NCBI GenBank assembly: GCA_016784105.1
Contig: JADHVG010000001.1
Coordinates: 16,238 to 48,237 of the forward strand
Reading direction: 5' to 3'
From: Candidatus Woesearchaeota archaeon
GTDB taxonomy: Archaea > Nanobdellota > Nanobdellia > Woesearchaeales > GW2011-AR4
DNA length: 32,000 nucleotides
Part shown: positions 66 through 16,750 of the stretch, one piece after another
Layout of the letters: the number at the start of each line of letters is the position of its first letter
Numbering within the stretch: the stretch's first letter is position 1
The notes under the pieces: model-generated
What the model was told of the DNA's origin: nothing
The model's input: only the letters and a program-made list of their open reading frames with translations
The model's database searches: none
Program-made: the position numbers and the translations under genes

Positions 66-650
66 ATGAATTTTATGAAATTTTTTTCAGATAAAAAATT
101 CATTTTTCTGCTCCTAATTTTGGATATCTTAGGAGTCCTGTTTTCATTTAACACTTACACTAACAGCATAAACAAACATATTTCGATTGGGAAAATTTAT
201 TTGATACCATTTTTTATGGTAAGTTTTTGGCTTTATTTGTTTGCAGCAATCTTCTTAGCATCAATAATTTTTAAGATAAAGATTCCTAATTTTTTGAAAG
301 GACTGATTTTCATTTATTGCTTCTCGTATGGATTCGGGTCTATGATCTTTTATCCATTGCTGATGAGTTTTGTGAAAGGATTTTCTTATTATCATTTCTG
401 GAATGTGTTTGCGCATGGCTTTGTTGGTTTGCAAAGTTTGATCTTTCTTAAACACATCAAAAAACCGAAAAATTTTAGCCTAATAACCTTAATTCTCATC
501 TTTTTAGCTAAAGATTTACTTGATCTTTTCTTGGGAGCTTTTCTTTATTTTACAAGATACGAGTTTTCATTACTTCTCAAAGGATTTATTGTATTCATTA
601 CCTTATCTTTGCAAATAACAGCTTTCTATATGTTGATAAAGAAAAATTAG
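66..650 (+). CDS. polytopic integral membrane protein, function unknown
   Basis: 194-aa ORF made almost entirely of hydrophobic helices (FIFLLLILDILGVLFSF, IYLIPFFMVSFWLYLFAAIFLASIIF, LITLILIFLAKDLLDLFLGAFLYF). No catalytic motif recognised. Confidence 0.6.
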   Translation: MNFMKFFSDKKFIFLLLILDILGVLFSFNTYTNSINKHISIGKIYLIPFFMVSFWLYLFAAIFLASIIFKIKIPNFLKGLIFIYCFSYGFGSMIFYPLLMSFVKGFSYYHFWNVFAHGFVGLQSLIFLKHIKKPKNFSLITLILIFLAKDLLDLFLGAFLYFTRYEFSLLLKGFIVFITLSLQITAFYMLIKKN

Positions 651-2389
651 ATGTAGGTTGCAGTGCACTTGACATCACAAGGCATACATAAAAATCCCTG
701 AATAAAATTACACTTCTCAACTTGAGCGCAAACAGTTCCAGCTTGACCAGCAGCCACGCTCCGGGAACCTTCAGGAGTGCACTTACCCGTTCCATCATTT
801 TCTTCTTTTTCAACATTTACATCTTGATTGCATGTTGAAATATAGTTCTGACAGTTCTCTGGAGATTCTTCGTAGAATAAAGTTGGGGCTCCTAAACTCA
901 AAACTCCCAAGCCAAGACTCAATCCTGTCAATCCTAAATAAATTCCTCCAATCAATGCTGGATTAGAAAATGTTGTTCCGATAGCCTCTCCTATGGCAGT
1001 ACCTGCTCCTTCAAGTCCTCCCTCCAATAGTTGAGTGAATAGGGGACCATCAAAATAAATTAAAGAACCAACAGATATTATTGTCAACCCCAAACTAACA
1101 TAACACAATGCACTTGGCTCTAAGCTATGTTCAACATCAACAGTCTTCTGTGTTTGTTCTGAACAACTCACAGCAGAAAACTCAGAAAACCCCTCAATAA
1201 CAGCAGAAACTTCATGGTCTTGAGGATTATCAAAGCTTCTCAAAGGGAACCAAAAATCATCCTTCCCTTCAAGAATCGCCATCTGGCTGATCTCATTAGG
1301 ATCATAATTAATAATCAATCTCTGTGGCTTGTTGAATTTCAATCCGTCAGGCTCAAAAGTATAAACTGGATTCGTTATGACATAAGATAAGTCTTGTCTT
1401 TGTAGCACATCAGCATTCCTCTTGGAAATAGGAACATTTTCTGCAAACACCTCATCAGGATATGTTTGATAAACATCTATCTTATCCACATCATTCCCAT
1501 ATAAATTAGCTGTTGTGCCTTCACTTATTTCTAAAACCACCTTATTGTCCGGACTTCTAACCTCAAAAGAGCTAAAGGCAGAGTTAACATCACTATGATT
1601 CTGCAAGTTAGTTGTTTTTTTCAAAAAAGTGTTTCCAAGTTTAGCCGCAAAAGACAAAGTATAAGGAACATCATCGGGAGTTATAGCTTTTTCATCCGTA
1701 ACACCAAAAATAAAATTATCTTGTGAACTTTCCACAACAGACAACTCAAAACCGTAATCTTCCACATCCAATAAAGGATCAAGAACATTAAAATCTGGAC
1801 TTAAGACATGCTGATTAACATTAGAAGCTGCTTCGAAAATTCTACGATAAGGAACCTTTAAACGCTCATTGAACTTATCATAACTAACCTCAAAATCAGT
1901 CTGTTTCAAAGTTATGGGATAACTAACAGAGATAAACACATCTTCATTCGCAAAATCTATTGACGCTTCCATTACTCCTTTATCTACTTGAAAACCTTGG
2001 GTTTCTATCAAAGTTTTATCAACACACAAAGGAAATTCATGAAGAATATATCCAAGAAGCTCTTTTTGGGTATGATTGAGGAAAGGCTGCACGTTAGCAT
2101 AATTAAAGTTCCAATAACTCTTCCCTTGATGCAAGAAAGATGAAGGAATGTCTATGTAGCCGCTTTGACCTCCAATTTTCTTAAGACCATCATAGCTGGT
2201 TTTCTTTAAACAGCTCTGCATGAAATTTCTCATCTCATCGGCCTGCAAAGATAATTTAGCGGCTTTCTCTGTTGCTGCTTTCGCATCAGCCTCTCTAATG
2301 CTTCTGTACACAATAAAAGATATAAGAAGAACAATCATTATTACGGCTGCAGTTACTAAAACAATAGAAAGCTGACCTCTTTTCCTCAT
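647..2389 (-). CDS. large membrane-anchored envelope protein, unknown family
   Basis: 580-aa ORF. N-terminus is MRKRGQLSIVLVTAAVIMIVLLISFIVY (basic residues plus one long helix). About 400 hydrophilic residues follow, then two Gly-rich hydrophobic segments and a 74-aa tail with 8 Cys. A TTATAAA element starts 30 nt upstream of the ATG. Confidence 0.75.
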   Translation of the reverse strand: MRKRGQLSIVLVTAAVIMIVLLISFIVYRSIREADAKAATEKAAKLSLQADEMRNFMQSCLKKTSYDGLKKIGGQSGYIDIPSSFLHQGKSYWNFNYANVQPFLNHTQKELLGYILHEFPLCVDKTLIETQGFQVDKGVMEASIDFANEDVFISVSYPITLKQTDFEVSYDKFNERLKVPYRRIFEAASNVNQHVLSPDFNVLDPLLDVEDYGFELSVVESSQDNFIFGVTDEKAITPDDVPYTLSFAAKLGNTFLKKTTNLQNHSDVNSAFSSFEVRSPDNKVVLEISEGTTANLYGNDVDKIDVYQTYPDEVFAENVPISKRNADVLQRQDLSYVITNPVYTFEPDGLKFNKPQRLIINYDPNEISQMAILEGKDDFWFPLRSFDNPQDHEVSAVIEGFSEFSAVSCSEQTQKTVDVEHSLEPSALCYVSLGLTIISVGSLIYFDGPLFTQLLEGGLEGAGTAIGEAIGTTFSNPALIGGIYLGLTGLSLGLGVLSLGAPTLFYEESPENCQNYISTCNQDVNVEKEENDGTGKCTPEGSRSVAAGQAGTVCAQVEKCNFIQGFLCMPCDVKCTATYI

Positions 2390-2442: not shown

Positions 2443-3630
2443 TTAGGCCTTGACCTTGGCCTCTACTTTTAATCCAACAGTTTCTTGTAATTCTGAAACC
2501 TTATCAGTCTTTTCCCAAGTGAAATCAGGATCTTCTCTTCCAAAATGTCCGTAAGCAGCTGTCTTTTGAAAAATAGGCCTTTTAAGCTTCAATTGCTTTA
2601 CAATTGCCTTGGGTCTTAGATCAAATACTTTACCAACAGCATCAGCAATTTTTTCTTCATCTACATTTGATGTTCCAAAAGTCTCAATATTAACTGATGT
2701 GGGCTTAGAAATTCCGATTGAATAGCTTAGTTGAACTTCACACCTATCAGCTAGATCTGCTGCAACTATATTTTTCGCAACATAACGAGCCATGTAAGCA
2801 CCGGATCTATCAACTTTTGATGAATCCTTACCAGAGAAAGCTCCCCCACCATGTCTGCCCATTCCACCATAAGTATCAACAATAATTTTCCTTCCTGTTA
2901 AACCAGCATCTCCATGAGGTCCTCCAATAACAAACTTTCCAGTTGCATTGATGTGGATTCTCGCATCTTTATCTAGCCAATCTCCACAAACCTCATTAAT
3001 AACTTTTTCTTCGATTTCTTTCCTTAAGCCATCTTCAGAAACAGTATCAAGATGTTGTTGTGCTATAACAACTGCTGTGATTTTTTTTGGAACACCATCT
3101 TCATATCTTACAGAAACCTGAGATTTCCCATCGGGACCTAGGCCCTTAATAGCTCCACTTCTCCTTACTTCTGCTAACCTTAAAGTTAATTTATGAGCCA
3201 TAGTTATAGGAAACGGCATTAGTTCAGGAGTTTCTTTACATGCAAAACCAAACATCATTCCTTGGTCTCCAGCTCCCTGGTCTAGATCTTCTCCACTGCC
3301 TTCATCTACTCCTTGTGCAATATCCACTGATTGTTCGTGCAAAGCACTCCAAACACCACAATCTTCATGATGAAGACCAAATCTTGAATCAGTATAACCA
3401 ATTTTTTCTAAAGTTGCCCTAGCAATTTTTTGAATATCTACATAAGCTTTAGTTCTTGCTTCTCCTGCAACATGTACAGTTCCTGTTGTTGTTAATGTCT
3501 CCGCAGCACACCTTGACTCAGAATCTTGACGCAGCATCTCATCTAATATTGCATCAGAAACCTGGTCTGCTACCTTATCAGGATGTCCTTCCGTAACCGA
3601 TTCAGAAGTAAAATATTCTATTTTTGCCAT
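2443..3630 (-). CDS. metK: S-adenosylmethionine synthetase, bacterial/eukaryal MetK type
   Basis: Near full-length collinearity with E. coli MetK motifs: [58 protein letters not shown]. Start moved to ATG 3630 (MAKIEYF) because GAGGTGGT lies 7 nt upstream; the track start at 3642 is a GTG inside that SD. Confidence 0.95.
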
Positions 3631-3747
3631 TTTAATTACCACCTCAAATTTTGATTGTTTTTACATTATAATTCCATTTTCTTTTAAAAAGCTTCTTGTG
3701 TAGAATATTCCGAAAAGAATAAATAGGGATTGGGATTATTTTCTTAT

Positions 3748-4891: not shown

Positions 4892-4916
4892 ACTTAGAAT
4901 TTAAGGAGTTTTAGTA

Positions 4917-4954
4917 TATAAACCTTTCTGTTTGTAGTTACTTTAAAGTAATGA
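4917..4954 (-). promoter_or_regulatory. 38-bp promoter module, copy A (palindrome plus BRE/TATA)
   Basis: Identical to 5378-5415. On the minus strand it reads TCATTACTTTAAAGTAACTACAAACAGAAAGGTTTATA. It contains the perfect 14-bp palindrome TTACTTTAAAGTAA (4938-4951) and GAAAGGTTTATA ending about 25 nt before the ATG at 4891. Confidence 0.7.
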
Positions 4955-5353: not shown

Positions 5354-5377
5354 AATAAATTAAGAATAAAGTCACTT

Positions 5378-5415
5378 TATAAACCTTTCTGTTTGTAGTT
5401 ACTTTAAAGTAATGA
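5378..5415 (-). promoter_or_regulatory. 38-bp promoter module, copy B
   Basis: Exact 38/38 match to 4917-4954, located 461 bp away. The palindrome TTACTTTAAAGTAA is at 5399-5412. Confidence 0.7.
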
Positions 5416-6627: not shown

Positions 6628-6657
6628 AATTCATTTCAGAATATATAAACTTTTCGG

Positions 6658-6674: not shown

Positions 6675-6738
6675 TAGTAATCTTTAAATATAAGCAATAG
6701 CTATGCACCTCTTATAGCTAAAAACAAGGTAAATTAAG

Positions 6739-7362
6739 ATGTTTAACTCAGATAATGAAAAAAAGATAGTGGAATTCGTCAAAAAGAGTCCTTTCGGAGT
6801 CAGTTCTTCTGAGATTGCAAAATATATTGGCCTAAACCGGATGACAATAACTAAATACCTTGCCATTATCAAAGAAAAGGCTTTAATTGATTTTAAACAG
6901 TTTGGAATGGCAAAATTATGGTTCATTCCAGTAGATATCAGCAAAGAAAGCTTCTTTGAGAAAATAATGGCTTCTTATTCTGACAATATCTCTCTGGAAG
7001 AGTTAAAACACGCATCTGAGAACGCAGGGATCGATTTAGGAGAAGAAATAAATCTTATGTACTTACAATTTTACGATACTGAGAAATTAAGTTTTGACCA
7101 GCTATGTGATTGCTTTGTGGATGTTGGGAAAAAACTCAATGGTTCGTTCAAAGCATCTGGAAAATTCAATGAAAAAATAGATGTTGAGATATTGAAAAGT
7201 CCTTTTTCTGGAGGAAGTGTTAAAGCGATGAACACCGTACTATCAGGAGTCTTTGCCAAGATTGCTTCATTAAACTTAGGGTATGCACGTGCTTTAGTTA
7301 AAGAAGAAGAAAATAAAAATTCGATTATTGAAGTTTTCTTGAAGCAGGAAGAGAAACAATAA
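6739..7362 (+). CDS. winged-helix transcriptional regulator with uncharacterised C-terminal domain
   Basis: N-terminal wHTH pattern is IVEFVKKSPFGVSSSEIAKYIGLNRMTITKYLAIIKEKALIDFKQFGMAKLWF. About 130 further aa are of unrecognised family. AAGGT lies 8 nt before the ATG. Confidence 0.7.
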   Translation: MFNSDNEKKIVEFVKKSPFGVSSSEIAKYIGLNRMTITKYLAIIKEKALIDFKQFGMAKLWFIPVDISKESFFEKIMASYSDNISLEELKHASENAGIDLGEEINLMYLQFYDTEKLSFDQLCDCFVDVGKKLNGSFKASGKFNEKIDVEILKSPFSGGSVKAMNTVLSGVFAKIASLNLGYARALVKEEENKNSIIEVFLKQEEKQ

Positions 7363-7704: not shown

Positions 7705-8433
7705 ATGACTAAAGCATTGTACATGGATGATTCTTATCTTAAGGAATTTAAAGCTACTGTTGAGTCAGTTAAAGATAATAAATATGTTGTTCTTGATCAA
7801 ACAGCATTCTATCCAACTAGCGGAGGGGTTGCTTGTGATACTGGAGTGTTAATTAAAGATAATGAAGAATATCCTGTTGTTTATGCAGGAAAGTTTGACA
7901 GGAAAATTTCGCATGAAGTCTCTAAACCCGGATTAAAGGAAGGAGATAAAGTTACTGGAAAAATAGATTGGGAAAGACGTTATAAGTTAATGAGACTCCA
8001 TACATCAGCTCATGTTTTGTGTTCGATTTTTCATAATAAAGGTGGTGCACAGATTACCGGTGGAAATATTGAACCTGATAAAGCAAGAATGGATTTTTCT
8101 TTGGAAGAATTTGACAGAGAAAAGATAGATGAATACCTGAAAATAGCAAACACCTTAGTTGAGAATGGTGCTGAAGTAAAAAGTAGTTACATGAATCGAG
8201 AAGAAGCACTAAAAATCCCAGACATGGTTAAACTTGCAAATAAAATGCCCCCTAATGTTGAAAAACTTAGAATTCTGGAAATTGTAGGTATTGATACTCA
8301 AGCAGATGGTGGAGCTCACGTCAAAAACATAACTGAAATAGGGAAAATAGAACTTGTTAAAGTTGACAATAAAGGAAAATCAAACAGAAGATTGTATTAC
8401 ATGGTTGGAGAACTAAAAGAAGAAAGCCCCTGA
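7705..8433 (+). CDS. alaX: AlaX-type trans-editing protein (alanyl-tRNA synthetase editing-domain homolog)
   Basis: Motifs are QTAFYPTSGG, the Zn-binding HTSAHVL, and DGGAHV. The size is typical of AlaX-M. AGGTGAT lies 3 nt before the ATG. Confidence 0.85.
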   Translation: MTKALYMDDSYLKEFKATVESVKDNKYVVLDQTAFYPTSGGVACDTGVLIKDNEEYPVVYAGKFDRKISHEVSKPGLKEGDKVTGKIDWERRYKLMRLHTSAHVLCSIFHNKGGAQITGGNIEPDKARMDFSLEEFDREKIDEYLKIANTLVENGAEVKSSYMNREEALKIPDMVKLANKMPPNVEKLRILEIVGIDTQADGGAHVKNITEIGKIELVKVDNKGKSNRRLYYMVGELKEESP

Positions 8434-9530
8434 GTTCCAACAATTCTTGATGCTAATGGTCTGAACTTTTTTGAAGTTTCGATGAATGATCCTTGGCTTT
8501 TGTCCAATAACGCGGTTAATCCTAATGACAAAAAACTTCTAGCCATGTGTTCGTTGTGTGTGTTTGTTTCTGGGTTCTCAGTTAAAAAACTTAAAGAAGC
8601 CATAATTCTATCGTAAGTCTCAGCTTGGTTGAACGCTGTTAGCATGTCTAATTCCAGTAAATCATTTTTTGTAGCAACTACATTTTCATCATCCACCTGA
8701 GAGGAATCCATCAATCCTTTCTTCATAAGGAATTTTTTGACATCTCGTTCACCAAATTGCCCCGGTTCAGACCAAGACTTAGGTTCTGGTCCTACATCCA
8801 GCAATCCGGACATGATCTCAATATAATCCCTGCTAAACTTGCTTGCTGTGAACTTATCTTCGGAAAGGAAGGTTCCAGCAGGGTATAACATTCCAACTTT
8901 TGTCCTTTTTCCATCATACTTCATAATCATCAATTGTAAATTTTGATTTACCTGAGGGTCGTTTTCCGCTACATATCTTGCAAGCTGCATCGCTAAAGTT
9001 GTAGCGTAATCTATTGTGTCAGTGGCAAAGTTCCCCCTGTTTTTTTTGTGGCTTTGTAATGCTAAATCTATTTGGTCAAAACCAGAACCTCCTTGAGCAG
9101 AAACTACGCAATTTTTGTAACCTGATTCATGGAGGGCATCATCAATGTGCACTAATCCTAGTTCTTTATCTCTGGTTGGACCTGCAACAATGAATCCAGA
9201 AATTTGTGCATCGCTTCCGTTTTTAGACTCCCAAATATGGTCCAAAAGGATCTCAGTTACCTGATCTATGCTGGATAATCTGCCGTGTTCCATCAACTTT
9301 TGCCTCCCCCTATACAACAAACCAAGATTTCCGGAACCGGTTAGTAAGAAATCTTGAGTATAATCTTTATCAGGATTTTTAGGAATAACAAAATTTTTTG
9401 CCCAATTTTTTCCCTGTACTTTTTTTACTACGTCATTTGGTGCATGAGGATCGAGAGTTCCCTGGCTATCTGATAAGGTCATAGCGTACCCTAACCCGTT
9501 TTGTAACCTCATACCAAAATTGTAAGTCAT
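8397..9530 (-). CDS. proteasome beta/Anbu-like Ntn-hydrolase candidate with C-terminal extension
   Basis: With the start at ATG 9530 the product begins MTYNFGMRLQNGLGYAMTLSDSQGT. Later motifs are VVKKV, LTGSGNLG, ISGFIVAG, LGLVHIDD and AQGGSGFDQIDLAL, arranged like T1-family/Anbu sequences. GGAAAGGTTTATAAAG places TTTATA exactly 30 nt upstream of 9530. The track ORF extends to 9704 across the divergent rpoK promoter. Confidence 0.5.
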   Translation of the reverse strand: MTYNFGMRLQNGLGYAMTLSDSQGTLDPHAPNDVVKKVQGKNWAKNFVIPKNPDKDYTQDFLLTGSGNLGLLYRGRQKLMEHGRLSSIDQVTEILLDHIWESKNGSDAQISGFIVAGPTRDKELGLVHIDDALHESGYKNCVVSAQGGSGFDQIDLALQSHKKNRGNFATDTIDYATTLAMQLARYVAENDPQVNQNLQLMIMKYDGKRTKVGMLYPAGTFLSEDKFTASKFSRDYIEIMSGLLDVGPEPKSWSEPGQFGERDVKKFLMKKGLMDSSQVDDENVVATKNDLLELDMLTAFNQAETYDRIMASLSFLTENPETNTHNEHMARSFLSLGLTALLDKSQGSFIETSKKFRPLASRIVGTQGLSSFSSPTM

Positions 9531-9551: not shown

Positions 9552-9567
9552 CTTTATAAACCTTTCC
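9552..9567 (-). promoter_or_regulatory. BRE/TATA promoter (GGAAAGGTTTATAAAG) for 8397-9530
   Basis: It has the same GAAAGGTTTATA core as the 4917 and 5378 modules. TTTATA starts 30 nt upstream of ATG 9530, implying a leaderless mRNA. Confidence 0.6.
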
Positions 9568-9621
9568 ATTTTTTTATTATTCTTTAGTGGTGAATTTAGA
9601 AGATTATTTATAAATAAATAG

Positions 9622-9638
9622 ATGGAAAGGTTTAAAAA
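9622..9638 (+). promoter_or_regulatory. BRE/TATA promoter (ATGGAAAGGTTTAAAAA) for rpoK-rps17e
   Basis: It is a mirror image of the 9552-9567 element. TTTAAA starts 39 nt upstream of the rpoK ATG at 9670. Confidence 0.55.
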
Positions 9639-9669
9639 CCCACCATTTATCCTACTATTACTTCTAAAA

Positions 9670-9882
9670 ATGGAATACACAAAATACGAAATGGCAAGAA
9701 TCATCGGTGCAAGAGCAACACAGATATCACAAGGCGCACCCTTACTAATGAAATTCTCAGAAAAAGACTTAGAAATGTTATCTTATAGCCCATTAGAGAT
9801 AGCAAAAAAGGAATACCAAGAAGGAATGATCCCGATCACAATAAGACAAGAAGAGGAACTAAAAAAAGATGGGAAGAATTAA
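9670..9882 (+). CDS. rpoK: DNA-directed RNA polymerase subunit K (Rpo6)
   Basis: TKYEMARIIGARATQISQGAPLLM and PLEIAKKEYQEGMIPITIR match the conserved Rpo6/RpoK core. Start moved from 9622 to the ATG at 9670, because the upstream part of the ORF is the promoter element. Confidence 0.85.
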   Translation: MEYTKYEMARIIGARATQISQGAPLLMKFSEKDLEMLSYSPLEIAKKEYQEGMIPITIRQEEELKKDGKN

Positions 9883-10112: not shown

Positions 10113-10595
10113 TTATTTCTTAGAATACTTTTCCCTTAAAGCTTTTTCAACATTCTTAGGAACTAAATCATTCAAATTTCCATTAAATCTAGCCATCTCT
10201 TTAACAATACTAGAATTAAGATAAACATAATGTTCTTTTGTCATGATAAAAATTGTCTCTACACTATCATCAACAACTCGATTCATTAATGCACGTTGGA
10301 ATTCAAACTCAAAGTCCGATACTGCTCTCAAACCCCTCACTATTATCTTAGAGTTCTTGCTTTTTACGTAATTCAACAATAGACCAGAAAAAGAATCTAT
10401 CTCCACATTCTTTATTTTTTTAGTTGATTCCTCTAACATATCTAACCTTTCTTTTGTTGAGAACAAAGGTTTCTTATCAGGATTGTCACCAACCGTAACA
10501 ATTACCTTATCGAAAATTTTTGAAGCTCTCTTGATGACATCAATGTGTCCATTAGTTGCCGGATCAAAGCTTCCCGGATAAACTGCTGTTTTCAT
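10113..10595 (-). CDS. coaD: phosphopantetheine adenylyltransferase, bacterial CoaD type
   Basis: AVYPGSFDPATNGHIDVIKRA, IVRGLRAVSDFEFE and LNSSIVKEMARFNG are collinear with E. coli CoaD. Confidence 0.92.
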   Translation of the reverse strand: MKTAVYPGSFDPATNGHIDVIKRASKIFDKVIVTVGDNPDKKPLFSTKERLDMLEESTKKIKNVEIDSFSGLLLNYVKSKNSKIIVRGLRAVSDFEFEFQRALMNRVVDDSVETIFIMTKEHYVYLNSSIVKEMARFNGNLNDLVPKNVEKALREKYSKK

Positions 10596-10597
10596 AG

Positions 10598-11188
10598 TTA
10601 GGAGTATACTTGTCTGTTTTTTAAGAGTTTTGGAATCATAATATCAATCTGATTTGTAGAATTCCTTAAGGTTTTATCATTATCAACAACAAAATCTGCT
10701 TTTTTGATTTTTTCTTTTAACTGTATCTGGGAATCTATTATCTGAATTACTTCTTTTTTAGAATATTTCCTCTTTTTTAGGACTCTTTCAATTTGTTTTT
10801 TCTTGGAACATTTAACAACCATAATTTTATCAAAGTACTTTTCCAATTTAGCTTCAAACAGCAAGGGAATGTCAACAACAATCCTAGTTTCTTTTTTATC
10901 CAATTTTTTTATTTTATTAATCTCTTTCTTCATTGCTTTAATTATTACTGGATGAGTTATGTTATTGAGTTTTCTTAATTTCTTAGAATCATTAAACACA
11001 ATTTCCTTTAGTTTTTTTCTGTCAGTTGTTCCAAATTCTTTCTTAATTTTTAATCTTAATAGTAAATTCTTCCTATAGATTCCATGATACAATCTATCCA
11101 CATTAATCACCCTAAAACCATGCTTTCTGAACAATTCAGAAACAGTGCTTTTCCCAGTTCCAAAATTCCCGGTAATTCCTAAAATCAT
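10598..11188 (-). CDS. coaE: dephospho-CoA kinase, bacterial CoaE type
   Basis: The N-terminal P-loop is ILGITGNFGTGKSTVSELF. VINVDRLYH and ITHPVI follow, a typical CoaE layout. The gene ends 2 nt before coaD. Confidence 0.85.
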   Translation of the reverse strand: MILGITGNFGTGKSTVSELFRKHGFRVINVDRLYHGIYRKNLLLRLKIKKEFGTTDRKKLKEIVFNDSKKLRKLNNITHPVIIKAMKKEINKIKKLDKKETRIVVDIPLLFEAKLEKYFDKIMVVKCSKKKQIERVLKKRKYSKKEVIQIIDSQIQLKEKIKKADFVVDNDKTLRNSTNQIDIMIPKLLKNRQVYS

Positions 11189-12303: not shown

Positions 12304-13272
12304 ATGCAAGTCTTTAAGTTGCAGAAAAAGGGGTTTAATGAGTTTCTTGAAAAAGTAAGAAGTAGCTATGAACTCATAGCCCCAATAAAAGAAGATTTAG
12401 TTAAATTTGAAAAGATAAATAATGTAAAAGATATTCACTTGGAAAAGAATTCTTATTTCCCGGTAAAAGAATATTTTTTTAGAAAAGAAGAAACCTTGTT
12501 TCAATTTGACGGGAAGAAGTTTATAACTCCAAAACTTAAAACTCCTACAAGAGCATTCTTTGGATTAAGGAGATGTGATTTAGCTGGAATTCAACATCAA
12601 GACAAAGTTTTCATGGAAGATGTTAATGATCCTTATTATTTGGAAGCCAGAAAAAACAGTTTCTTGTTAGGTTATCATTGTCCTTCTGCACCATCCGAAT
12701 ACTGTTTCTGTGGGTCTATGAACCTTGAGGAGTTCTTCGACATCATGTTCTATGACCATGAAACATTCTTTCTAGCAGAAATAGGTTCTAAAAAAGGAGA
12801 ATTCTTAGTAAAAAAATTCTCAAAATACTTTTCTAAAACAAACGAGATAATCTCCGAGGTTGAAAAAACAATTCCTGGAACTGAAAGATTAGAGAAAAAA
12901 GATATCTCCAAGCTATATGATCATAAAGACTGGAAAAAAGGAGTAGATATCTGTTTGTCATGTACGGCATGTACGGCCTTATGTCCAACGTGCTACTGTT
13001 TTAGCATCCATGATGAAATTTCTATTAAAAACACAAAAGAAAGTGAAAGAAAAAGAAGCTGGAGTTCATGCCAAGTTCCCGAATTTACAAAAGTAGCTGG
13101 AGATCATGTCTTTAGACAGGAAAGAGAAGAAAGGTTCAAACACAGAATATACCATCAACTTGATTATTTCAAGGAAAAGTATAATGTGAATATGTGTACT
13201 GGCTGCGGAAGGTGTATAGAAGGATGTCCTACCAGAATAGATTTTGTCAAGATAATAAATGAAATGGAATAA
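12304..13272 (+). CDS. hydB: group 3b [NiFe]-hydrogenase (sulfhydrogenase) beta subunit, Fe-S protein
   Basis: Two ferredoxin-type clusters are present, CLSCTACTALCPTCYC and CTGCGRCIEGCP. The gene is first in a B-G-D-A order, as in Pyrococcus sulfhydrogenase. Confidence 0.85.
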   Translation: MQVFKLQKKGFNEFLEKVRSSYELIAPIKEDLVKFEKINNVKDIHLEKNSYFPVKEYFFRKEETLFQFDGKKFITPKLKTPTRAFFGLRRCDLAGIQHQDKVFMEDVNDPYYLEARKNSFLLGYHCPSAPSEYCFCGSMNLEEFFDIMFYDHETFFLAEIGSKKGEFLVKKFSKYFSKTNEIISEVEKTIPGTERLEKKDISKLYDHKDWKKGVDICLSCTACTALCPTCYCFSIHDEISIKNTKESERKRSWSSCQVPEFTKVAGDHVFRQEREERFKHRIYHQLDYFKEKYNVNMCTGCGRCIEGCPTRIDFVKIINEME

Positions 13273-13390
13273 AAAAAATATGAGAGTATCAGACAATAGA
13301 AGCACAGATTAATAACCAACAATTCAATGGACAGGCAACATAAAAACAATAAAAAAAAATTCAATATCAAAATATAAATAATAATTAAAA

Positions 13391-14197
13391 ATGGAAAGAC
13401 AAAAAACTTTTGAGAACCCTTACTTGCCTAAGCCCTACAAGGTTTTAAGCTTTACAAGAGAAAGCTCTGATAGCTTCACCATAAAAGTAGACATGAGGAT
13501 AAACCACGAACCTGGACAGTTTGTGCAAGTTTCTGTTCCGGGAATCGGAGAATGCCCGATTTCTATCTGTTCTGATTCCAACAAATACATTGAACTTAAC
13601 ATCCGAGAAGTTGGAAATGTAACAAATGCCCTATCTAAGTTGAAAAAAGGTAGTGTGGTGTTTGTCAGAGGTCCTTACGGTAACGGATATCCTATGCGGT
13701 CGTTAAGAGGCAATAATATCTTGATAATTGGAGGCGGATGCGGAGTTGCACCCCTAAGAGGAATCATAGAGTTTGTTGCAAATAACCGAGAAGACTATGA
13801 AGATGTTAATTTGTTCCTGGGCTATAGAAGTCCGGCAGACATGATATTCAAGAAAGAGACAAAAAAATGGAAGAAAGATTACCAGGTTGATGTTAGCGTT
13901 GATAAGGTTCCTCACGGACAGAGCTGTCATGATATGCGTGTTGGATTCATAACTGATGCACTAAAAGAAATGCACCTTGATAAAAATAATAGAGTTGTGT
14001 TTATCTGTGGACCTCCCATCATGATGAGATATGTGATTGAAATTCTTAAAAATAAAGGATTTAACGACAAACAAATATTCATAAGCGCAGAAAGGCTGAT
14101 GTATTGTGCATTAGGAGTTTGCTGCCACTGCATGATAAAAGGCAAATTTACCTGTATAGATGGTCCGGTTTTCAGATATGATGAGGTGCCAAAATGA
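13391..14197 (+). CDS. hydG: sulfhydrogenase gamma subunit, FAD/NAD(P)-binding with 2Fe-2S
   Basis: It has a ferredoxin-NADP-reductase-like fold (GQFVQVSVPGIGECPISI, IIGGGCGVAPL) and a C-terminal cluster CALGVCCHCMIKGKFTCIDGPVF. Confidence 0.88.
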   Translation: MERQKTFENPYLPKPYKVLSFTRESSDSFTIKVDMRINHEPGQFVQVSVPGIGECPISICSDSNKYIELNIREVGNVTNALSKLKKGSVVFVRGPYGNGYPMRSLRGNNILIIGGGCGVAPLRGIIEFVANNREDYEDVNLFLGYRSPADMIFKKETKKWKKDYQVDVSVDKVPHGQSCHDMRVGFITDALKEMHLDKNNRVVFICGPPIMMRYVIEILKNKGFNDKQIFISAERLMYCALGVCCHCMIKGKFTCIDGPVFRYDEVPK

Positions 14198-15006
14198 AGC
14201 TCAAAGTTGGGTTTTACGGCATCACTGGCTGTGCAGGCTGTTTACTTTCCGTGATATTCAATGAAGATGAAATTCTGGATCTGGTAGATTTAGTGGATCT
14301 AAAAGCATTCCCTTTCGTGAAAGAAGTAAACATAGATGAAAAGTTTGACTATGTTTTTATGGAAGGCCTAGTTGCTGATAACGATGACCTTAAAACGTTA
14401 AAGAAATTAAGAAAGAACTCAAAGTTTTTAGTTTCTTTAGGAGCTTGTGCATCCACCGGTTGTGTTCCTGCTTACCGACAGTATACATTAAAAGAAAATT
14501 ATGAACATCTGATATACAAAAAACAGAAAAGATTACAAGATCTGAAAGCAAGTCCGATTGATGATCATGTAAAAGTTGATTATTATATTCCTGGATGTCC
14601 ACCGGACAAAAAAGAAATCGTTAATTTTGTTAAAAACCTAGTTATAGGAAAAGAACCTAAACCTTTTGAAAGTCCTGTTTGCGTGGAGTGCAGACAAAAC
14701 GGAAATCAGTGTTTACTTGATTTAGGAAAACCATGTTTAGGCCCAATAACTGCAGGAGGATGTGATGCTGTTTGCATAAACGGAAAGTTTGAGTGTTGGG
14801 GATGTAGAGGGCCTACAAAAGACATGAATCTGGATTTAATGATAAAGATGTTACGTGATAGGGGTTTTGATGATAAGTTCATCCAAGACCGAATGCGAAC
14901 TTTTGTAGGATTAAAGATGCCGATGATAGAAGAATATATGTGCAGTACCGGAACCGCAAACAGATTAAAAACATCATTTAAAGGAAAAAAAGAATATTTT
15001 GAATAA
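14194..15006 (+). CDS. hydD: [NiFe]-hydrogenase small (delta) subunit
   Basis: The N-terminal motif is GITGCAGCLLS. Further Cys clusters are GACASTGC, PGCPP, CVECR and GGCDAVC. The ATGA start overlaps hydG. Confidence 0.88.
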   Translation: MKLKVGFYGITGCAGCLLSVIFNEDEILDLVDLVDLKAFPFVKEVNIDEKFDYVFMEGLVADNDDLKTLKKLRKNSKFLVSLGACASTGCVPAYRQYTLKENYEHLIYKKQKRLQDLKASPIDDHVKVDYYIPGCPPDKKEIVNFVKNLVIGKEPKPFESPVCVECRQNGNQCLLDLGKPCLGPITAGGCDAVCINGKFECWGCRGPTKDMNLDLMIKMLRDRGFDDKFIQDRMRTFVGLKMPMIEEYMCSTGTANRLKTSFKGKKEYFE

Positions 15007-15007
15007 G

Positions 15008-16282
15008 ATGAGCAAAACAATAACCTTAAACCACATAACCAAGATAGAAGGACACGCTTCTCTAAGCTTAGGAATAAAAAACGATAAAGTTACTAAATGT
15101 GAACTATCGGCAACGGAAGGAAGTAGGTATTTTGAAGGTATCGTGAAAGGACGTCGTTATTACGAAGCACACGAGATGACTTCTCGTATTTGTGGAGTAT
15201 GCAGTTGTGCGCACGTAGTTGCAGCAATTTCAGCTGTGGAAAATGCTTTTGGTTATAAACCAAGCAAACAAACAAAGCAACTTAGAGAATTAATGACATT
15301 AGGAGAAAGAATAAGGAGTCATGCAACTCATTTGTACTTTCTTGCATTGCCCGATTATGTAGGGTACGGTTCCGCATTAGCAATGGCCAAAAAATACCGG
15401 AAAGAGTTGCAGAATGCTCTTAATTTAATGAAGTGCGGGAATGGCATCATAAAATTACTTGGAGCTCGGGAGTTGCATCCAGTTTCTGCAACGGTTGGCG
15501 GTTGGCTCAAAATACCAAAAGAAAAAGAGATAGAAAATGTAAAGAAAACTCTTATTTCAGTAAGGGAAGATGCTCTCAAAACCTTTTCTTTATTTTCTTC
15601 CCTCAACTATCCTGAGTTTGAAACAGAAAGTGTTATGTTTTCTTTAGTTGATAAAAATAAATACTCAGTTTTGGATGGAACGTTTTCTTCTGGCAATATG
15701 AAAACTACAAAGAAAAAATATAGGGAACATATCAAAGAGTACCAAGTTCCACATTCAAATGCAAACTTTGTAACGTATGATAACTACCAGTATCAGGTTG
15801 GAGCTATGGCTCGTATAAATAATAACAAAAAACAATTGCACAATAAAGCAAAAAAACTTCTTAATAAGTCTAAAATAAAGTTTCCTTCAAAGAATCCTTA
15901 CACCAATAATTTTGCGCAGGCAGTTGAGTTGGTGCATTGCATCGAGGAGGCTATCAAGCTATGTGATTCATTAAATCTAAAAGAAGAGAAACTAGATAAA
16001 TTAAAAGTTAAAGCTGGAACCGGAATAGGATGCATAGAAGTTCCTAGAGGAACACTATGGCATGAATATACCCTAGATAAAAAAGGAATCATTACCAATG
16101 CGAACATAATAACTCCCACTGCACAAAACCTTTTCAGTGTTCAAGAAGACATAAAAGAACTTGTTCCTTCTATAATAAAGAAAAAGAAAAAAGACATAAT
16201 AATGGACATAGAAAAACTGATAAGGAGTTACGATCCATGTTTCTCATGTTCAGCACATTTTTTGGAGGTTAAATGGGTATGA
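15008..16282 (+). CDS. hydA: [NiFe]-hydrogenase large (alpha) subunit
   Basis: The Ni-binding motifs are RICGVCSCAH (N-terminal) and DPCFSCSAHF (C-terminal). A short FLEVKWV peptide after the His would be removed by the maturation protease. ATG 15008 is preferred over the TTG at 14999. Confidence 0.92.
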   Translation: MSKTITLNHITKIEGHASLSLGIKNDKVTKCELSATEGSRYFEGIVKGRRYYEAHEMTSRICGVCSCAHVVAAISAVENAFGYKPSKQTKQLRELMTLGERIRSHATHLYFLALPDYVGYGSALAMAKKYRKELQNALNLMKCGNGIIKLLGARELHPVSATVGGWLKIPKEKEIENVKKTLISVREDALKTFSLFSSLNYPEFETESVMFSLVDKNKYSVLDGTFSSGNMKTTKKKYREHIKEYQVPHSNANFVTYDNYQYQVGAMARINNNKKQLHNKAKKLLNKSKIKFPSKNPYTNNFAQAVELVHCIEEAIKLCDSLNLKEEKLDKLKVKAGTGIGCIEVPRGTLWHEYTLDKKGIITNANIITPTAQNLFSVQEDIKELVPSIIKKKKKDIIMDIEKLIRSYDPCFSCSAHFLEVKWV

Positions 16283-16419
16283 AAAACAAAAAAGGACATT
16301 TTGATCTTGCAACATTACTAATTGCAATAATTGGCGGAATTATTGCTTACATTACTGTTGAAAAGAAACTATGGAAATTGTTTGTTAAAGATGAGAAACC
16401 TATACGTGTTCGGAAATGA
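16279..16419 (+). CDS. candidate 46-aa single-TM micro-protein
   Basis: Below the track cutoff. GGAGGT (16265-16270) lies 8 nt before ATG 16279. The product is MKNKKGHFDLATLLIAIIGGIIAYITVEKKLWKLFVKDEKPIRVRK. It overlaps the hydA stop and 29 nt of the protease gene. Confidence 0.3.
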   Translation: MKNKKGHFDLATLLIAIIGGIIAYITVEKKLWKLFVKDEKPIRVRK

Positions 16420-16750
16420 GTTTTTAGAAGAAGATAGAAAAGCAAGAGAGCTTTCTTCTATGTTGGAAGGGTTTAATGTAGTACATTGTAGGAGCCCAGA
16501 TGAATTACTGGAATGTGAAGAGGATGAGATACTTATATTGGATGTTGTTTCCGGGATAAAAAAACCAATGATAATCACAGATATAGAACAGATAAAAACA
16601 ACCAAAATGTTAAGCTTACACGATTTTGATCTAGGATTTTTCCTAAAACTGATGAAAGAAATGGGAATGGACAAAAAGATTAAAATACTAGGAATTCCTC
16701 CATCAGGGGACTTAAAAAAGATAAAAGAAGAAATAAAGGTGATGACATGA
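16391..16750 (+). CDS. hydrogenase maturation endopeptidase (HycI/HoxW family)
   Basis: The motifs VFGNEFLEEDRKA, ILILDVV, SLHDFDL and IKILGIPP are collinear with the HycI motifs (GN..gDD, VDA, H, GIqP). Start set at ATG 16391 instead of TTG 16331. Confidence 0.75.
   Translation: MRNLYVFGNEFLEEDRKARELSSMLEGFNVVHCRSPDELLECEEDEILILDVVSGIKKPMIITDIEQIKTTKMLSLHDFDLGFFLKLMKEMGMDKKIKILGIPPSGDLKKIKEEIKVMT

Follow-up and report, generated by a model that had tools for sequence, protein, structure and literature searches.

A probable propeptide-less threonine peptidase of the proteasome superfamily in one clade of Woesearchaeota

A 32,000-nucleotide stretch of contig JADHVG010000001.1 (assembly GCA_016784105.1, positions 16,238 to 48,237 of the forward strand) from a Candidatus Woesearchaeota archaeon, referred to here as the window, carries on its minus strand a gene whose product is, in our judgement, probably a propeptide-less N-terminal nucleophile (Ntn) threonine peptidase of the proteasome superfamily (MEROPS T1 type), belonging to a small and fast-evolving family specific to one clade of Woesearchaeota within the DPANN archaea. 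The gene is invisible to Pfam and NCBIfam and has for that reason been annotated in public data as hypothetical, with what appears to be the wrong start as well. An earlier reading made from the DNA letters only (the sequence-only reading) had proposed a proteasome- or Anbu-like protein with an exposed threonine and a long C-terminal extension, and its claims are taken up below where the results bear on them. All coordinates are positions in the window, and residue numbers count Met1 at ATG 9530. The gene and its two regions are as follows.

8397-9530, minus strand: coding sequence of the proteasome-like protein (377 residues and stop), seen as an open reading frame (ORF), with the relatives P0002, P0003, P0004 and P0007 aligning from residue 1
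8871-9530, minus strand: N-terminal Ntn-hydrolase (proteasome beta/Anbu-like) domain, residues 1 to about 220, from the AlphaFold2 (AF2) model, Foldseek and hhalign
8400-8870, minus strand: all-helical extension, residues 221-377, from the secondary structure in both models

The fold was modelled with AF2 on an alignment of six sequences. The model (predicted template modelling score 0.69; predicted local distance difference test, pLDDT, 70-90 in the core) shows the order S1-S4, H1, H2, S5-S8, H3, H4, S9 and S10, which is that of a proteasome subunit. When it was compared with the PDB using Foldseek, a check proposed with the sequence-only reading, 542 matches fell below an E-value of 1e-3, and all 50 of those listed were of the proteasome family with a probability of 1.00; the best were the Anbu structures 5nyj, 5loy and 5nyw at about 2e-7 (top match 1.9e-7, TM-score on the target about 0.6), followed at 7e-7 and weaker by eukaryotic and archaeal 20S subunits, both alpha and beta.

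Profile-profile comparison leads to the same superfamily. Reference profiles were built from six Anbu sequences (from plasmid or chromid records) and from four archaeal PsmB sequences (three PDB chains and a Woesearchaeal PsmB), and local hhalign alignments gave the following.

Family against Anbu: probability 83%, E 9.5e-6, columns 1-139
Family against PsmB: probability 82%, E 1e-5, family 4-204 against PsmB 3-185
Anbu against PsmB: probability 96%, E 5e-9

Across the alignments E ranged from 4e-6 to 1e-5 for family and Anbu, and from 1e-5 to 3e-5 for family and PsmB. For the N-terminal domain the scores of 47.2 (Anbu) and 39.7 (PsmB) lay about 10 standard deviations above those of 60 column shuffles (14.7+/-3.1, maximum 23.9, and 13.8+/-2.6, maximum 21.0, respectively). 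A single PsmB sequence was too shallow as a reference, giving a probability of 5% with the register correct. Two relatives also match PF00227 from end to end, P0004 with 21.7 bits (E 1.7e-4) and P0007 with 16.9 bits against a gathering threshold of 22.4 bits; genuine Anbu proteins score 21.4-35.9 bits with this model, a range that includes P0004. The window protein, P0002 and P0003 gave no PF00227 match. Together, profiles and model confirm the family as a genuine member of the proteasome-like superfamily, and the fold put forward in the sequence-only reading is borne out. By the same alignments the family is about equally far from Anbu and from PsmB, and further from either than these are from each other, so that it is neither closer to Anbu than to PsmB nor part of the Anbu family.

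The active-site residues could be placed by equivalences which agree in the hhalign alignments to PsmB and to Anbu, and their conservation was counted over six members, namely the window protein, P0002, P0003, P0004, P0007 and a divergent homologue from locus L012.

9525-9527, minus strand: Thr2 codon ACT, equivalent of Thr1 and predicted nucleophile; invariant (6/6) and aligned to Thr1 of Anbu and to the post-propeptide Thr of Woesearchaeal PsmB
9468-9470, minus strand: Asp21 of the SDS motif, equivalent of Asp17; invariant and aligned to Glu/Asp17 of PsmB and the Asp of Anbu DSR/DTR
9396-9398, minus strand: Lys45 (NWAK), equivalent of Lys33; in 5/6 members, aligned to PsmB Lys33 and the lysine of Anbu FRK
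9330-9332, minus strand: Gly67 (TGSGN), equivalent of the oxyanion-hole Gly47; invariant and aligned to PsmB Gly47 and the glycine of Anbu AGN
9084-9086, minus strand: Ser149 (GGSG), equivalent of Ser129; G148-S149-G150 invariant and aligned to PsmB G128-S129-G130, with QIGE here in Anbu
8958-8960, minus strand: Asp191 (NDPxVN), equivalent of Asp166; aligned to PsmB Asp166

Thr2, Asp21, Gly67 and Gly148-Ser149-Gly150 are thus kept in all six members, the very divergent L012 homologue included, while Asp191 is kept in four, the exceptions being P0004 and P0007, where it stands one column off. The motifs listed in the sequence-only reading are all present in the order given there (SDSQGT 20-25, VVKKV 34-38, TGSGNLG 64-70, GFIVAG 112-117, LVHIDD 126-131 and GGSGFD 147-152), although VVKKV is not conserved in the relatives, lies within a variable loop of low confidence (residues 24-40, pLDDT<50) and does not hold the catalytic lysine.

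Archaeal PsmB (PF00227, TIGR03634 arc_protsome_B; PDB 1PMA, 1J2Q, 3H4P) has the same fold and the same order of secondary structure, and its Thr1, Asp17, Lys33, Gly47, Gly128-Ser129-Gly130 and Asp166 all have equivalents in the family. The family differs from it in having neither a propeptide nor the Gly-1 with which that propeptide ends, in insertions of about eight residues between Asp17 and Lys33 (S2-S3) and between Lys33 and Gly47 (S3-S4), the second of which, IPKxPxKxxTQDF, is conserved in the family, in a Val at the position of Ser169, and in its extra C-terminal domain; nor is there evidence of an alpha partner for the family protein. A canonical PsmB was rejected as an identity on the missing propeptide and on the absence of a TIGR03634 or PF00227 score for the window protein; with TIGR03634 (cut-off 224 bits) the best relative reached 11.6 bits.

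With Anbu (the bacterial 'proteasome-type protease', COG3484; PDB 5NYJ, 5NYW, 5LOX) the family has in common the proteasome-beta-like Ntn fold, the DS(R/Q) and G-N motifs, a helical continuation after the core, which in the family is a prediction, and the lack of an AAA+ partner; six Anbu sequences begin, without a propeptide, with MTYC, and the full-length members of the family with MTY. A true Anbu orthologue, horizontally acquired from bacteria, would account for this N-terminus, for DS(R/Q), for the GN after the oxyanion glycine and for Anbu standing at the top of the Foldseek matches, yet we regard it as extremely improbable. A hidden Markov model (HMM) of the six genuine Anbu sequences gives the family at most 3.1 bits, as against 2.2-29 bits for PsmB; none of the Anbu signatures (RTNAG, FQIGExKYGKP, SMDSTLRSN) is found in it; and the family has a GSG of PsmB type and Asp166 where Anbu, which is without equivalents of Ser129 and Asp166, has QIGE and Asn. 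Nor are the genes of an Anbu operon present: a genuine Anbu locus, in Paracoccus, is an operon with ATP-grasp, alpha-E and transglutaminase genes, a linkage which is frequent and not universal, and no ATP-grasp, alpha-E or transglutaminase-like gene was found in the 32-kb window or in five related loci. Anbu is bacterial and the family archaeal, and the single long C-terminal helix of Anbu, which forms an antiparallel coiled-coil dimer, contrasts with a region of about 155 residues and several predicted helices here (model pLDDT 58). Identity with Anbu was accordingly rejected on sequence clustering, signature motifs, operon content and taxon, while the solitary gene in an archaeal, Woesearchaeotal context described in the sequence-only reading was found as it had been described.

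The predicted exposure of the threonine depends upon the start codon. The minus-strand ORF is open from 9704 to a stop at 8397-8399, and translation from ATG 9530 yields 377 residues with the N-terminus MTYNFGMRLQNGLGYAMTLSDSQGT. Every member begins with Met-Thr, the four full-length relatives (P0002, P0003, P0004 and P0007) with MTY and the L012 homologue with MTNILG. Upstream of this codon are the following features.

9552-9567, minus strand: transcription factor B recognition element (BRE) and TATA promoter GGAAAGGTTTATAAAG, found in the sequence and conserved in five loci
9567-9569, minus strand: upstream in-frame ATG, the start used by the automatic callers (390-residue product P0001), within or 5' of the BRE and probably not the start
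9586-9594, minus strand: conserved upstream motif TTCACCACT (TTCACTACT in relatives), candidate regulator site, in five close loci

The TATA box TTTATAAA at 9553-9560 (minus strand) occupies positions -30 to -23 relative to ATG 9530, its first base being 30 nt 5' of the A of the ATG, just as the sequence-only reading had it. The element GAAA(G/A)(G/A)TTTATAAA is kept upstream of all five genes compared (the window, L003, L005, L006 and L007), at a distance from the ATG of 21 nt in the window, L006 and L007 and of 29 nt in L003 and L005, and reads TTTAAAAA in the divergent L012 locus. Because the relatives begin with MTY and a conserved promoter of leaderless type precedes the codon, with ATG 9569 inside that promoter, a translation start at ATG 9530 is well supported by sequence comparison, and the public gene calls would be 13 residues too long; a Thr at residue 2, as first proposed, holds on the same grounds.

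Translation from ATG 9569, which the sequence-only reading had itself named as an objection to its exposed threonine should no processing follow, would give a 390-residue protein with a 13-residue propeptide (upstream peptide MERFIKQETLKFA) cut off autocatalytically as in 20S beta subunits. The ORF is indeed open upstream and this start was chosen by the automatic callers, but the codon falls within the BRE, ahead of the TATA box, and the position reads ATAG in the relatives, which have no ATG there. Autolysis of beta subunits uses Gly-1; here the residue preceding the Thr is Met, as compared with G9-T10 in the PsmB of locus L018, and we give this start hardly any credence. A chance ORF was also rejected, the gene being kept with the same neighbours in four further metagenomic loci, at 37-42% identity, and as one fragment.

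A scan of the window with the consensus GAAARRTTTATAAA (GAAAGGTTTATAAA) found five copies where 0.6 would be expected.

4915-4928, minus strand: GAAAGGTTTATAAA copy
5376-5389, minus strand: GAAAGGTTTATAAA copy
6642-6655, minus strand: GAAAGGTTTATAAA copy
9553-9566, minus strand: GAAAGGTTTATAAA copy
9625-9638, plus strand: GAAAGGTTTATAAA copy

As three of the five lie 22-23 nt before an ATG (4891, 5353 and 9530), and given their excess, GAAARRTTTATAAA is by its sequence pattern the apparent standard promoter of leaderless genes in this organism, which implies that leaderless transcripts are probably common in the genome. The longest rpoK ORF (86 residues, ATG 9622; window 9622-9882, plus strand) overlaps its own promoter-like GAAAGGTTTAAAAA at 9625-9638, and the start taken by the gene callers is ATG 9670 (70 residues); here again, as at the proteasome-like gene, the longest ORF over-extends into the promoter. 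A scan for sigma-70 promoters and terminators gave nothing above expectation, the sigma-70 model being irrelevant for an archaeon.

The motif TTCAC(C/T)ACT, 17-19 nt upstream of the BRE, is kept in the window, L003, L005, L006 and L007 whatever the divergent neighbour may be (RpoK, a haem-oxygenase-like gene or small ORFs), and is absent from the divergent L012 locus. There is one copy of TTCACCACT in the window, a match that taken alone is not significant (0.49 expected). From its conservation the motif may be a regulator-binding site specific to the proteasome-like gene.

The family is very small. An exhaustive phmmer search of 1.84 billion representatives returned five matches besides the protein itself, of which four are true relatives, all on metagenome contigs: P0002 (41% identity), P0003 (37%), P0004 (37%) and P0006, a C-terminal fragment. 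None of the matches is a named or RefSeq protein, and with P0007, added by a profile search, the family numbers about six sequences among these representatives. Word-indexed searches found only the window's own 390-residue call (ATG 9569 start), P0004 and P0007, and with the L012 protein as query only the protein itself, a singleton in the protein database. No member was found by a pattern scan of 185,579 GTDB species genomes, and a metagenome scan re-found P0003 and no further relative. When the family was searched with tblastn against 38 loci anchored on AlaX, the sole match was the weak one to L012; among 16 AlaX-anchored Woesearchaeal loci a gene in the syntenic position was found only in L012, where it encodes a homologue of 323 residues related to the family by hhalign (E 2.6e-6). 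On the evidence of these searches the family appears to be restricted to one clade of Woesearchaeota, and no paper describing it was found in the literature.

Archaea are known to hold other proteasome homologues, and it is conceivable, if unlikely, that the protein is a divergent member of one of the clusters which Fuchs, Alva and Lupas described (2021, PMC8665760). ACC, WPH and some PHI proteins are found in archaea and are propeptide-less, several with predicted long C-terminal coiled-coil helices, and the Foldseek likeness to Anbu and to 20S alpha and beta subunits is as that paper describes for WPH and 'group II'. The published representatives are WP_161937350.1, WP_040339656.1 and WP_012956871.1 (PMC8665760); the comparison was made by description only, and the phmmer search described above, with four true relatives and none of them named or in RefSeq, argues against close membership of ACC, WPH or PHI. 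Moreover, plain Anbu and PsmB HMMs miss the family (6 bits at most), whereas each of the two recognises most proteins of the other's family, and no member occurs in the GTDB species genomes scanned. The hosts reported for ACC and WPH include Euryarchaeota and Crenarchaeota among others (PMC8665760), while the present family is known from its single Woesearchaeotal clade.

The members diverge rapidly. When the window was compared with L003, L006, L007, L008 and L012, the proteasome-like protein was 37-42% identical across loci, as against 65-81% for the flanking AlaX, RpoK, S17e and CoaD; for L012 the figures were 22% for this protein and 73-75% for AlaX and CoaD. The family evolves at roughly double the rate of the genes beside it, hence its orphan appearance. 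Such a rate, together with the loss of Ser169 and the lack of a PF00227 signal in the window protein, is what one might see in an inert structural subunit, alpha-like or a degenerate paralogue, which has kept the fold and not the function. We hold this to be very unlikely, as the equivalents of Thr1, Asp17, Gly47 and Ser129 are invariant (6/6) and those of Lys33 and Asp166 are kept in five and four members, and as the N-terminus is exactly Met-Thr, with no N-terminal extension of the alpha type.

The C-terminal region sets the family apart from PsmB. The strands of the core end at about residue 217 and are followed by an H5-like helix (226-240) with a conserved MSGL, a variable linker of low confidence (242-285, absent in P0004 and P0007), three or four further helices, placed at about 288-318, 324-343 and 346-366, with a conserved EFYDRF helix, and then a disordered tail. 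Modelled alone, the extension has a pLDDT of 58; it has no Pfam match, and Foldseek returned only generic helical bundles at E>=1. The unrecognised helical extension of the sequence-only reading is therefore upheld in its nature, though at about 155 residues (221-377) and not 130. The H5 position mediates subunit pairing in Anbu and in 20S beta subunits (PMC5666114, PMC8665760), and since the extension continues from this position, the most economical guess is that it would serve in oligomerisation or in docking of a partner or substrate. The 3' ends of the gene and of the convergent alaX overlap by 37 nt (window 8397-8433), and the C-terminal tail encoded in the overlap is unconserved and predicted to be disordered.

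An extra C-terminal domain, a propeptide-less N-terminal Thr and a narrow distribution are also features of connectase (DUF2121), an archaeal proteasome-like protein ligase (Fuchs 2021, PMC8665760), and the protein might likewise be a highly specific processing enzyme or a transpeptidase/ligase, whose loops and C-terminal domain recognise one substrate. The conserved lengthenings of S2-S3 and S3-S4 lie next to the active site, S3/S4 being the site of the signature insertion of connectase, and the surrounding genes include no unfoldase or ring partner. Connectase, however, is without H1 and H2, and its S3 and S4 are separated by a lid of two helices (PMC8665760), whereas the AF2 model of the family has the corresponding helices (69-82 and 88-103) and only a loop, an insertion of about eight residues, between the strands at 42-49 and 61-68; no connectase structure is among the 50 listed Foldseek matches, and the conserved neighbours include no candidate substrate gene. 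Identity with connectase itself was rejected on the model, and a comparable function seems to us distinctly doubtful.

For the preferred reading, that of a propeptide-less threonine peptidase, we infer the following course from gene to activity. The conserved BRE/TATA element, by its conservation and spacing, would give rise to a leaderless mRNA with ATG 9530 as its first codon. Met1 would be removed by methionine aminopeptidase, residue 2 being Thr, and the alpha-amine and hydroxyl of the Thr would thereby be exposed; this is expected from the specificity of the aminopeptidase and from Anbu, which has no propeptide and whose Thr is exposed by removal of Met in vivo (Fuchs et al., 2017; PMC5666114). 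Peptide bonds would then be attacked by this Thr1 with the help of Lys45, Asp21, the Gly67 oxyanion hole and a supporting network of Ser149 and Asp191. The two loop lengthenings, which would lie on either side of the substrate cleft, probably determine specificity, and the helical region most likely provides for oligomerisation or docking. As neither an ATPase nor an Anbu-operon partner is found among the nearby genes, an ATP-independent stand-alone peptidase would be expected.

Several points weigh against this reading. Ser169 is not conserved, its position being taken by Val194, and in L012, the divergent homologue, the equivalent of Lys33 is ambiguous. Searches of Pfam, NCBIfam and the PDB sequences (phmmer) with the window protein gave no significant match: in Pfam it has only a chance 12.7-bit match to Arg_tRNA_synt_N, and profile searches of the PDB with family alignments yielded at best a de novo design (E 0.14) and otherwise no match. 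Matches of P0004 to Cmr6 and AAA entries in the PDB (E>0.05) were rejected as spurious. The hhalign probabilities are only about 74-88%, from very shallow profiles (effective number of sequences about 2.5), and the AF2 model, from six sequences, is of moderate confidence (mean pLDDT 65). The rapid divergence could reflect relaxed constraint. N-acetylation of a free N-terminal Thr, which could occur in archaea, would leave it inactive.

The neighbourhood of the gene is conserved. RpoK/Rpb6 and S17e lie upstream in divergent orientation and AlaX downstream in convergent orientation, and the order CoaD, S17e, RpoK, a variable position (sometimes a haem-oxygenase-like gene), the proteasome-like gene and convergent AlaX is fixed in five loci. 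The AlaX of the window is 60-76% identical to that of metagenome-assembled genomes (MAGs) labelled Woesearchaeota or Nanoarchaeota, by which the organism falls among the Woesearchaeota. It is also 62-75% identical to that of MAGs titled 'uncultured Methanosarcinales archaeon' (L010, L012, L014, L016 and L021; GTDB records), which have a Woesearchaeota-like synteny and whose organism labels look wrong. In another Woesearchaeote, locus L018, a canonical PsmB (PF00227, 170 bits) is found at 6682-7320 (plus strand), immediately after alaX, with which it shares the strand, and is followed by an ORF of 630 residues; this PsmB adjoins the position held by the divergent homologue in the clade of the window, which may be a coincidence or a hint of the paralogue's origin.

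Elsewhere the window encodes S19e, L31e, Cbf5 and FtsZ. An S-adenosylmethionine synthetase with MetK domains PF00438/PF02772/PF02773 lies at 2443-3642 (minus strand), and a CoaD-like cytidylyltransferase-family protein and a CoaE-family dephospho-CoA kinase at 10113-10595 and 10598-11188 (both minus strand). MetK and CoaE are bacterial-type versions, and for this reason their genes were probably acquired horizontally. The five genes of a soluble NiFe hydrogenase cluster lie at 12304-16750 (plus strand) and encode a 4Fe-4S protein, an FAD/NAD-binding subunit, the small and large subunits and a HycI-like maturation protease. Two ORFs are without a Pfam match at E<=1e-3, at 66-650 (plus strand, 194 residues) and 647-2389 (minus strand, 580 residues).

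Proteasome-like Ntn hydrolases serve as a model for the evolution of self-compartmentalising proteases, and one uncharacterised branch of them, connectase, has proved to be a useful protein ligase. Since 22 further clusters of proteasome homologues, comparable families all, were already described in 2021 (Fuchs, Alva and Lupas, PMC8665760), the gain from the present family is incremental rather than conceptual; it is one more divergent, lineage-specific proteasome-like subfamily and not a new kind of system. It does, however, combine the Anbu-type, propeptide-less Met-Thr-Tyr start with the Ser129/Asp166 network of beta subunits. Current opinion holds that a pre-alpha/beta, Anbu-like lineage has disappeared from archaea (Fuchs 2017, PMC5666114), and as a speculation to which we attach a low probability, the family might be an archaeal survivor of that stage, in which the novel helical domain would confer a quaternary structure unlike either rings or Anbu helices on an ATP-independent protease of genome-reduced DPANN cells. 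The family adds to the superfamily a DPANN branch in which Anbu-like and beta-subunit-like features are mixed and joined to an unclassified helical domain. That the gene diverges faster than those around it hints at a role peculiar to the lineage and possibly concerned with interactions, and should its product prove active, the family would offer a small threonine protease of the stand-alone kind from a genome-reduced organism.

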